This document shows, one piece after another, positions 23,395 to 23,910 of a stretch of DNA of 64,000 nucleotides; the first letter of the stretch is position 1, and each line of letters opens with the position of its first letter. The DNA is from Klebsiella phage Sealy. The notes beneath the pieces are model-generated. The model ran no database searches, had not been told where the DNA came from, and saw only the letters and a list, made by a program, of their open reading frames with translations. The stretch lies in sequence record PQ337358.1; one strand, written 5' to 3'. The position numbers and the translations under genes were made by a program.

Positions 23395-23425
23395 TTGCAA
23401 TCTCGCCACGATTTTTATATAATAT
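23395..23425 (+). promoter_or_regulatory. sigma70 promoter followed by an ORF-free leader of about 480 nt
   Basis: TTGCAA at 23395-23400, a 17-bp spacer, TATAAT at 23418-23423. Confidence 0.55.
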
Positions 23426-23910
23426 ATTCATAGGTTGAGAGAAATGATGTGAGTTACAAAACTGACATAATTCCTCTCATTCACTTCCGAGCATACAGAA
23501 CAGTCCGGCTGCTACATGCTTGGTTGGGTTTGGCTTATTGGAAAATTGATTCCGAACGGAATTATAGATAATTGATCTAGAATGCGGGTAAGAGAGGTTG
23601 GCATCGCGAGGCTCTCAGATATTTGTTCGTTAGTCATGTGGAGCAAATAGCACCGCGGTCTGAAATGACCAAGAAGTGAAGCTGTAAGTAGCAACGTACC
23701 TCTGCGCAATAGCGACGAATAGGGGTCAACCACATGGAGCTTAGCGGCGATTACATGCTGTGTGGGAGTTGTGCGAAGCGGCCAGTTCTAGCAATGAGGA
23801 AGTGACCACCCCTCCATCTATAAGGAAATTTGTTGAGTCAGTGGACTTTTAAGCTGTTCTATCCTTGATAGTTCGAGATCGCTTTATTCTTCAACATAGG
23901 AGAAAACGTA

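Follow-up and report, generated by a model that had tools for sequence, protein, structure and literature searches.

A conserved structured RNA is predicted to lead the transcript of the D2-type helicase gene in T5-like phages

Klebsiella phage Sealy (sequence record PQ337358.1) carries, within the 64,000-nucleotide (nt) stretch of DNA analysed here and referred to as the window, an interval of approximately 480 nt that separates a promoter from the gene for a 929-amino-acid (aa) homologue of the phage T5 helicase D2. Comparison of this interval, which we term the leader, with the corresponding DNA of related phages showed a non-coding, structured, sense-strand RNA whose fold is kept by compensatory change, its transcription being predicted. 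The leader is bounded by the following features (window positions; + is the strand presented):

23323–23347, + strand: intrinsic terminator, an 11-base-pair (bp) stem followed by a T run, at the end of the upstream operon
23395–23423, + strand: sigma-70 early promoter, TTGCAA (23395–23400), 17-nt spacer, TATAAT (23418–23423), with a predicted start near 23430
23911–26700, + strand: open reading frame (ORF) of the 929-aa D2-type helicase, a homologue of the T5 D2 bipolar SF2 helicase

The region 23300–23920 is 100% identical in Klebsiella phage vB_KpnS_Riker_ER52 and matches 79 Klebsiella Sugarlandvirus genomes (Demerecviridae, T5-like) at 95–100% identity; the window itself is that of a phage of this genus. 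The terminator, which is annotated as such in Sugarland, Shiner and T5 and is kept in the alignment, ends an operon that includes nrdD, sir2 and two DUF7415 genes; the latter are adjacent paralogues (22519–22920 and 22917–23312), each with two DUF7415 repeats, directly 5′ of the terminator. The promoter is the top sigma-70 match within 6.5 kb (10/12). Across the same 6.5 kb the overall count of promoter-like sites is at chance level, and the weight of the promoter therefore comes from its conservation: it occupies the same position in all enterobacterial T5-like lineages and in the Vibrio phages pVp-1 and Chester. Its T5 equivalent is annotated as 'putative early promoter T5P32', and two T5 reference records show the same terminator, T5P32 and then approximately 470 nt without annotation up to obp. 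No terminator was found between the leader domain and the D2 gene. The promoter, the approximately 480-nt leader and the helicase ribosome-binding site (RBS) described in a first-pass annotation of the bare sequence were all confirmed, and the promoter proved to be conserved across lineages. The same annotation called the segment GC-richer than its flanks, which holds relative to the promoter and translation start region (GC 0.45–0.52 in the leader against 0.37–0.42) and fails relative to the neighbouring upstream genes (approximately 0.50). On a coarser scale, GC is 0.365–0.38 across 23300–23599 and approximately 0.46 elsewhere, the GC-poor stretch including a covarying RNA hairpin (P1, below).

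In every relative examined, a gap without an annotated conserved gene lies 5′ of the D2 homologue, measuring 606 nt in Eos, 617 nt in T5_ev219 and in EPS7, 712 nt in phiR201, 820 nt in Proteus phage 1, 665 nt in Vibrio pVp-1, 634 nt in Vibrio Chester (with one small called ORF within), approximately 860 nt in Vibrio D420 (small called ORFs only) and at least 1 kb in Vibrio JSF12. All enterobacterial lineages, as well as pVp-1 and Chester, share the promoter and the bases transcribed first, and in these phages 480–773 nt separate the −10 element from the start codon.

When all lineages were aligned globally with MAFFT and folded with RNAalifold, the alignment was poor and no structure was found; structure was tested instead in subgroups, at anchors and by an alignment-free duplex test. 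The window/Eos pair provided the basis of the consensus fold for the window helices, which was cross-checked against other lineages. Within the genus, eight variant leaders contain 11 polymorphic sites, 5 of them unpaired and 6 paired, and none of the paired changes breaks a pair. Where only one side had changed, the result on the + strand was a G.U pair in each case (three times from A-U to G.U, twice from C-G to U.G), with A.C never seen, and the pair 23492/23518 was seen as C-G, U.G and U-A. For the 5′ domain, compared over six lineages, 91.7% of alignment cells were paired, against 40–54% with slid partners, and two-sided change was found in 14 of 27 pairs, against 2–4 with slid partners, a level reached by none of 500 shuffles. 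At full length, a structure predicted from the T5 and EPS7 rows only was counted also on nine L021-type rows, in which the central 330 nt are largely different; 89.6% of cells were paired (38–48% with slid partners) and 26 pairs showed two-sided change (3–8 with slid partners). The same align-and-fold pipeline was run on helicase coding stretches as controls. For the window and Eos, the leader gave 35 compensated and 19 broken pairs, against 3–7 and 29–53 in the coding controls; for T5 and EPS7, 6 compensated and 9 broken, against 1–2 and 30–35; and for the L021-type phages, 7 compensated and 10 broken, against 2–3 and 24–33.

The long-range stem was scored without any alignment. Its cognate strands paired with a mean of −34.1 kcal/mol, against −19.9 kcal/mol for non-cognate strands (standard deviation 3.7), none of 265 derangements was as good as the cognate combination, and a control segment showed no effect. 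The antisense strands reached −25.2 kcal/mol against −34.1 kcal/mol for the sense strands, and this weaker antisense pairing indicates that G.U pairs matter. Two invariant blocks lie 233–250 nt apart in nine lineages, separated by sequence that is not conserved; a loop–loop pairing between them (GGCUGC with GCGGCC) was considered, and both blocks hardly vary. Transfer of the single-sequence minimum-free-energy structure from the window to Eos gave weak support, with 42 changed pairs kept and 43 broken. We regard it as very probable that the leader acts as a functional structured sense-strand RNA. A structured 5′ untranslated region or riboregulator had been among the candidates of the first-pass annotation, which proposed folding with covariation across related phages as a check; the fold kept by compensatory change in a non-coding stretch strongly supports that candidate as to its nature.

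The fold of the window leader comprises the following elements:

23436–23479, + strand: P1, the hairpin nearest the 5′ terminus, within a few bases of the predicted transcription start; coincides with inverted repeat I1
23487–23494 with 23516–23523, + strand: P2 stem
23495–23516, + strand: near-invariant block ACAGAACAGUCCGGCUGCUACA inside P2, with an inner hairpin CAGU-NNG-GCUG
23527–23583, + strand: 5′ strand of the long-range closing stem, or rod (23527–23541, 23545–23556, 23562–23569, 23571–23583)
23785–23860, + strand: 3′ strand of the rod (23785–23795, 23816–23823, 23829–23842, 23846–23860)
23584–23656, + strand: three-way junction of P5 (23584–23589/23650–23656), P5a (23592–23602/23606–23616) and P5b (23620–23628/23641–23649)
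23657–23679, + strand: GAAA-rich P6 hairpin GGUC-UGAAAU-GACC, then a purine block
23677–23784, + strand: P7/P8 domain carrying P9 (23677–23685/23778–23784, 23688–23695/23768–23774, 23696–23703/23721–23727)
23730–23765, + strand: P9 hairpin, CCACAUGG with CUGUGUGG, whose loop holds a mini-hairpin, P9a, GCU-[UAGC]-GGC
23796–23803 with 23808–23814, + strand: Px branch hairpin
23859–23871, + strand: small hairpin CUAUC-CUU-GAUAG in a conserved GUUGUUCUAUYC motif, approximately 40 nt before the RBS
23899–23919, + strand: start region, with Shine–Dalgarno (SD) sequence GGAG (23899–23902), ATG (23911) and a 7-bp hairpin, AGAAAAC (23901–23907) with GUUUUCU (23913–23919)

Across lineages the 13 pairs of P1 are 97% paired, with 5 changed on both sides, and the cognate hairpin scores −15.9 kcal/mol against −9.4 for non-cognate strands and −9.1 for the minus strand. 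P2 has 14 pairs, 9 of which have changed on both sides, and the block that it encloses, ACAGAACAGUCCGGCUGCUACA, is found in one copy per genome and in T5-like contigs only. The rod closes a multi-helix domain of approximately 335 nt and shows 12 pairs compensated on both sides relative to Eos; the equivalent helices of T5, EPS7 and the L021-type phages are 88–95% paired, with 10 two-sided changes. In several other lineages the closing stem is nearly perfect: T5 has 19 bp and a single mismatch, and L033, L034 and phiR201 have 13–30 bp. A stem of the RNase III type, that is, about two turns of near-continuous double-stranded RNA, is present in T5 (11 + 7 bp, one mismatch), phiR201, L033 and L034, and in the window this stem is split. 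In the window/Eos consensus fold the three-way junction has 6 pairs compensated on both sides, its P5b carries the conserved loop UUCGUUAG, and its topology recurs with unrelated sequence in T5-type and L021-type leaders. The P6 stem covaries (GGUC/GACC, CUGGC/GCUAG, AGAGU/ACUCU, GGGG/CCCU) and is followed by the conserved purine block AAGAAGUGA at 23671–23679, whose conserved form is GAGAAGUGA. P7 and P8, drawn from the window/Eos pair only, are less certain than the other helices. The invariant CTTAGCGG at 23740–23747 occurs in exactly one copy in every enterobacterial locus, and P9 recurs, differing in sequence, in at least 10 lineages, among them the Proteus phage and L040, in which the 5′ domain cannot otherwise be recognised. 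In T5-type phages the 9 pairs of P9 are 96% paired, with 4 two-sided changes, and the base pairs flanking the mini-hairpin, with its invariant CU[UAGC]GG tetraloop, covary (GG/CC, GA/UC, GC/GU, AG/CU). Px covaries likewise (GAGG/CCUC, GGGG/CCCC, GUGG/CCAC, AUAUGA/UCAUAU), as does the small hairpin before the RBS (CUAUUC/GAAUAG, CUUUCC/GGAAAG, CUGUU/AACAG); since this hairpin and the base of the rod overlap in the window/Eos model, they represent alternative pairings. The several short inverted repeats noticed in the first-pass annotation number 14 pairs, three of which (I1, I11 and I14) coincide with conserved helices.

The translation start is base-paired in two different ways. The window start-region hairpin pairs part of the SD region with codons 2–3, and in T5-type phages the SD and the GUG start are enclosed by another hairpin, of 8 bp and 100% paired. 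The surroundings of the pre-RBS hairpin (23850–23868, TAAGCTGTTCTATCCTTGA) resemble the start of the D2 coding sequence (23909–23927, TAATGTTTTCTATTCTAGA) at 74% identity, and T5 shows a similar resemblance, GUUGUUCUAUUC and GUGUUUUCUAUCC; this could reflect a duplicated binding site or an alternative pairing. A pairing of the pre-RBS hairpin with D2 codons 3–5, prompted by the repeat labelled D2, was tried and found unsupported in L033.

The leaders of other lineages vary on this plan. T5-type and L021-type leaders (L005, L021; Tequintavirus/Epseptimavirus) are identical over the first approximately 104 and the last approximately 85 nt. Between these ends most of the sequence differs, with length unchanged and a similar fold (alignment A7, columns approximately 105–430), which suggests modular exchange of the central domain between the two types. 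Leaders of the phiR201 type (L007 1909–2025; L027, L036 and L047) have an insertion of approximately 100 nt between P1 and P2, and each such locus gives two partial matches to a covariance model of the 5′ domain. The model found no homologue in the leaders of the Proteus phage, L040 or the Vibrio phages, and the window yielded no further copy. T5-like phages of Vibrio (L009, L010 and L051) have structured leaders of 618–758 nt behind the same type of promoter, with a 5′ hairpin AUUGAUUCGAAAGAGUCGAU and conserved blocks of their own (GUAAGAGUG, ACUAAGYGU and ACGUAGAGA); homology of these Vibrio leaders to the enterobacterial leader could not be demonstrated.

Sequence constraint was compared between the leader and its surroundings. 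Relative to phage Sugarland, 2 of 481 leader positions are changed, with equal constraint at all positions and no third-position relaxation, against 106 of 2,790 (3.8%) in the helicase gene, 96 of them at codon position 3, and 6 of 117 in the stretch from terminator to promoter. Leader identity is 99% or more in 76 of the 78 genomes compared within the genus, and the surrounding 6.5 kb is 90–99% identical. In the T5/EPS7 and L021-type groups, 52–58 columns vary in the leader, against 74–138 in helicase stretches of equal length. At the level of sequence comparison, these data show stronger purifying selection on the leader than on the adjacent genes. The ORFs within the leader are:

23449–23571, + strand: small ORF of 40 aa
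23760–23852, + strand: small ORF of 30 aa
23512–23733, − strand: ORF of 73 aa, the only one in the leader of at least 60 aa
23634–23735, − strand: small ORF of 33 aa

The 73-aa ORF, which the first-pass annotation gave as the sole ORF of the region, is thus unique only above that length, smaller ORFs being present on both strands. Leader ORFs vary in frame, position and length among lineages, EPS7 having none of at least 25 aa on the sense strand. The resemblance of the window to Eos extends over several frames and both strands, and the 73-aa antisense ORF is frameshifted in Eos. No PHROG family matched the small leader ORFs. A protein-coding gene at this site in related phages would have pointed to a frameshifted pseudogene; no conserved ORF was found there in any relative. 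Records of the genus (for example PP738788, PQ657803 and MZ571828) contain 2–4 'hypothetical protein' coding sequences in the leader, which are probably mis-annotations.

Searches against known RNAs gave no family for the leader. With Rfam 15, whose families include riboswitches, T-box, ROOL, GOLLD, OLE, HEARO, 6S, group I and II introns and tmRNA, 23250–24000 had no match at the gathering threshold or even at E ≤10, the whole window yielded tRNAs only, and nine other lineages had no match inside their leaders; the Rfam scan suggested in the first-pass annotation thus left the leader without a family. A tRNA/tmRNA scan of the leader region found none. The tRNA cluster of the window lies at 486–7391 (− strand; 20 tRNAs by ARAGORN, 18 by Rfam at the gathering score) and is typical of T5-like phages. 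The T5 leader showed no similarity to any of 5,426 Escherichia coli genomes. In 596 Gb of bacterial genomes the invariant-block pattern had 59 matches, against approximately 70 expected by our own calculation, which is uninformative. About ten Pectobacterium chromosomes (L125, L128, L129, L140, L144, L152, L155, L170 and L172) each have a single match to the 17-base invariant-block pattern, probably one conserved host gene that matches by chance. No description of the leader was found in the literature searched or in Rfam; structured leaders and large non-coding RNAs are known as kinds, and this RNA family and its context are new.

The protein encoded downstream bears on what the leader might do. 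It is annotated as 'replication origin binding protein', is 78–79% identical to the T5-type protein, belongs to PHROG 3712 and matches Pfam Herpes_ori_bp over aa 395–534 only (profile positions 51–197 of 820). This match spans only the helicase core, and 'UL9-like origin binder' therefore overstates what is known of the protein: of the first-pass description 'UL9-like', the SF2 helicase motifs stand, and the Herpes_ori_bp match does not extend to a C-terminal sequence-specific DNA-binding domain of the UL9 type. Records of the Roth phages name the helicase 'U3 small nucleolar RNA-associated SSU processome protein 25', probably a mis-annotation. T5 D2 has been characterised biochemically as a bipolar SF2 helicase, for which an initiator role was proposed, not shown (PMC3632103).

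Several explanations other than a leader acting on D2 were considered. A coding explanation for the leader, with the ORFs of 40 and 30 aa as small protein genes or with the whole as a degenerated gene, is suggested by the 1–4 'hypothetical proteins' called in it in many records and by a weak RBS call for the 40-aa ORF in Sugarland. We find this scarcely credible, given ORFs that are conserved in neither position, frame nor length (none of at least 25 aa in EPS7), third codon positions that are not relaxed, the lack of a PHROG match and of a gene at this site in any relative examined, and a similarity to Eos in several frames and on both strands that is expected of nucleotide conservation. A duplex-DNA origin with binding sites for the adjacent helicase, as in UL9/herpesvirus or iteron origins, would accord with the 'origin binding' annotation of that gene, the short invariant blocks and the central place of the locus in the T5 genome. 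This candidate of the first-pass annotation is weakly supported at best and, in our view, highly unlikely: the leader has no iterons (its direct repeats are chance-like and of two copies only), tandem repeats, DnaA box or skew switch; the UL9 box CGTTCGCACTT, at up to 2 mismatches, occurs 13 times in 64 kb against 14.0 expected, never in the leader; each invariant block is single-copy; and the Pfam match covers the helicase core without the UL9 DNA-binding domain. Neither compensatory changes on one strand through G.U nor constraint over the whole length would be expected of a few duplex binding sites. In another reading, that of an RNA-based origin, the leader transcript itself would be the primary origin of T5-like phages, the folded RNA made by host polymerase forming an R-loop that primes the leading strand or opens the duplex, and the D2 helicase, translated from the same transcript, being made alongside and loading there in cis. 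To our knowledge, the T5 origin has never been defined at the sequence level, and a strong early promoter followed by approximately 500 nt of conserved folded RNA, of a size like RNA II, with an AT-rich first 50 transcribed nt, would suit such an element. The leader adjoins the helicase proposed as the T5 initiator (PMC3632103), and at 59.07–59.54 kb of 121.75 kb (48.5–48.9%) the T5 leader lies near the centre of the molecule, where electron microscopy has placed T5 origins (Davison 2020, bioRxiv 10.1101/866236). That mapping is coarse, however, and the whole replication gene cluster is central; the AT-rich transcript start is a covarying RNA hairpin, not merely an unwinding element; no minus-strand promoter-like site for an RNA I-like regulator lies within 23431–23910; and G/C skew is not special relative to neighbouring genes and shows no switch. 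No tested sequence feature gives specific support, and we judge an R-loop origin, attractive as it is, improbable. If true, it would couple early transcription to initiation near the genome centre and would be the long-sought primary origin of T5-like phages.

We tentatively favour the reading that approximately 23430–23910 is a cis-acting 5′ leader of the early mRNA of the D2-type helicase and sets D2 expression. It has the general traits of such a leader, namely its own promoter, non-coding character, contiguity with D2 and sense-strand covariation, with transcription predicted. We prefer this reading because the start region is base-paired in both the Sugarlandvirus and T5 groups with a closed domain nearby, because no terminator intervenes and the element is never found away from D2, and because long-stem early phage leaders beside a start site are known to tune translation and stability. 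The closed domain would lie approximately 40–50 nt from the base-paired start region, and its folding state would set the amount and timing of D2. A protein on the invariant loops, possibly D2 itself, could alter that state, as could RNase III cutting of the closing stem in the manner known from the lambda N leader and the early mRNAs of T7, and protection of the transcript would fall to the 5′ hairpin. Several observations weigh against a cis-acting leader. Distant D2 homologues in marine metagenomes (33–37% identity) follow directly on the preceding gene without any leader, making the leader a trait of T5-like phages proper and not of the helicase family. The 773-nt leader of Proteus phage 1 contains a perfect TTGACA-18-TATAAT promoter (L008 2430–2464), 66 nt upstream of the D2 start, and weaker promoter-like sites occur at −96 and −89 in L033 and L034; in phages with such internal promoters D2 can probably be made without the leader, which better fits an independent RNA. 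The Proteus promoter has a conserved GTTCTAT motif within its spacer. The single-sequence folding energy is unexceptional (z = −1.2 sense, −1.8 antisense), the rod of the window is broken into segments of 11, 12, 8 and 11 bp and stands out less in energy than its counterparts in other lineages, the transcription start of the leader is a prediction, and known protein-binding translational operators are far smaller than a leader of 480–770 nt. Some of these points would suit a different fate of the transcript, akin to the sRNA candidate of the first-pass annotation, in which the central domain (approximately 23527–23860) is cut out at the closing stem by RNase III and persists as a stable RNA that acts in trans or as the partner of a protein such as D2. 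The nearly perfect closing stem of several lineages (T5, L033, L034 and phiR201) and invariant loops such as CU[UAGC]GG, which suggest a binding partner, are consistent with excision, and the complexity and size of the leader are like those of large phage RNAs of unknown function. The leader's size, the internal promoters and the swapping of the central domain between T5-type and L021-type phages with identical flanks and conserved length count against a cis-acting leader and fit excision; on this reading, co-transcription with D2 would reflect nothing more than genome layout. We nevertheless consider excision unlikely: the element always lies directly 5′ of D2, no terminator separates domain and gene, a comparison with E. 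coli revealed no complementary host sequences, and both RNase III cleavage and the target or partner of the product are conjecture.

T5 is a classic model phage, and we know of no sequence-level definition of the control of its replication genes. The leader, more conserved than the surrounding genes, directly 5′ of the gene of the proposed initiator and at the genomic location of the origins seen by microscopy, provides a concrete handle on D2 regulation and on origin function. Dozens of GenBank records carry spurious 'hypothetical proteins' inside it. As a new class of large structured RNA absent from Rfam, it joins a short list known from phages.

Among known systems, the origin transcripts ColE1 RNA II and those of T4 oriF and oriG share with the leader a host-polymerase promoter, a transcript of approximately 500 nt and adjoining replication functions. 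RNA II needs its conserved fold for the priming hybrid, which in the leader is hypothetical; the leader lacks an antisense RNA I promoter, and no G-run/C-run pair was identified in it. At T4 oriF and oriG a promoter and a short unwinding element suffice without a large fold, unlike the leader, and the leader transcript, in contrast to all of these, would continue into a protein gene. Herpesvirus oriS and oriL have inverted box I and box II sites flanking an AT-rich spacer. Ribosomal RNA processing stalks resemble the leader in that 5′ and 3′ flanks pair over approximately 250–330 nt and close a structured domain; the leader stem, however, is interrupted in the window lineage, and its excision would be an analogy. 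ROOL, GOLLD, OLE and raiA are, like the leader, hundreds of nt long and phage-borne, with many helices, conserved loops, covariation and a function that is unknown. The leader differs from them in lacking an Rfam match (even at E ≤10), in its restriction to T5-like phages and in being the fixed 5′ leader of one gene rather than free-standing near tRNAs. The lambda N leader (nutL, with an RNase III-sensitive stem by the N RBS) and the T7 RNase III sites are, as the leader is predicted to be, parts of early transcripts of host RNA polymerase, with a long structured leader and a stem adjoining a partly sequestered start. We know of no antitermination system in T5, and the D2 leader lacks boxA and boxB; it is two to three times longer than these leaders, with invariant loops and a closed domain of approximately 335 nt. 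In the lambda and T7 systems, processing or protein binding tunes translation and stability, and the D2 leader, possibly after cleavage by RNase III, may work in the same way.

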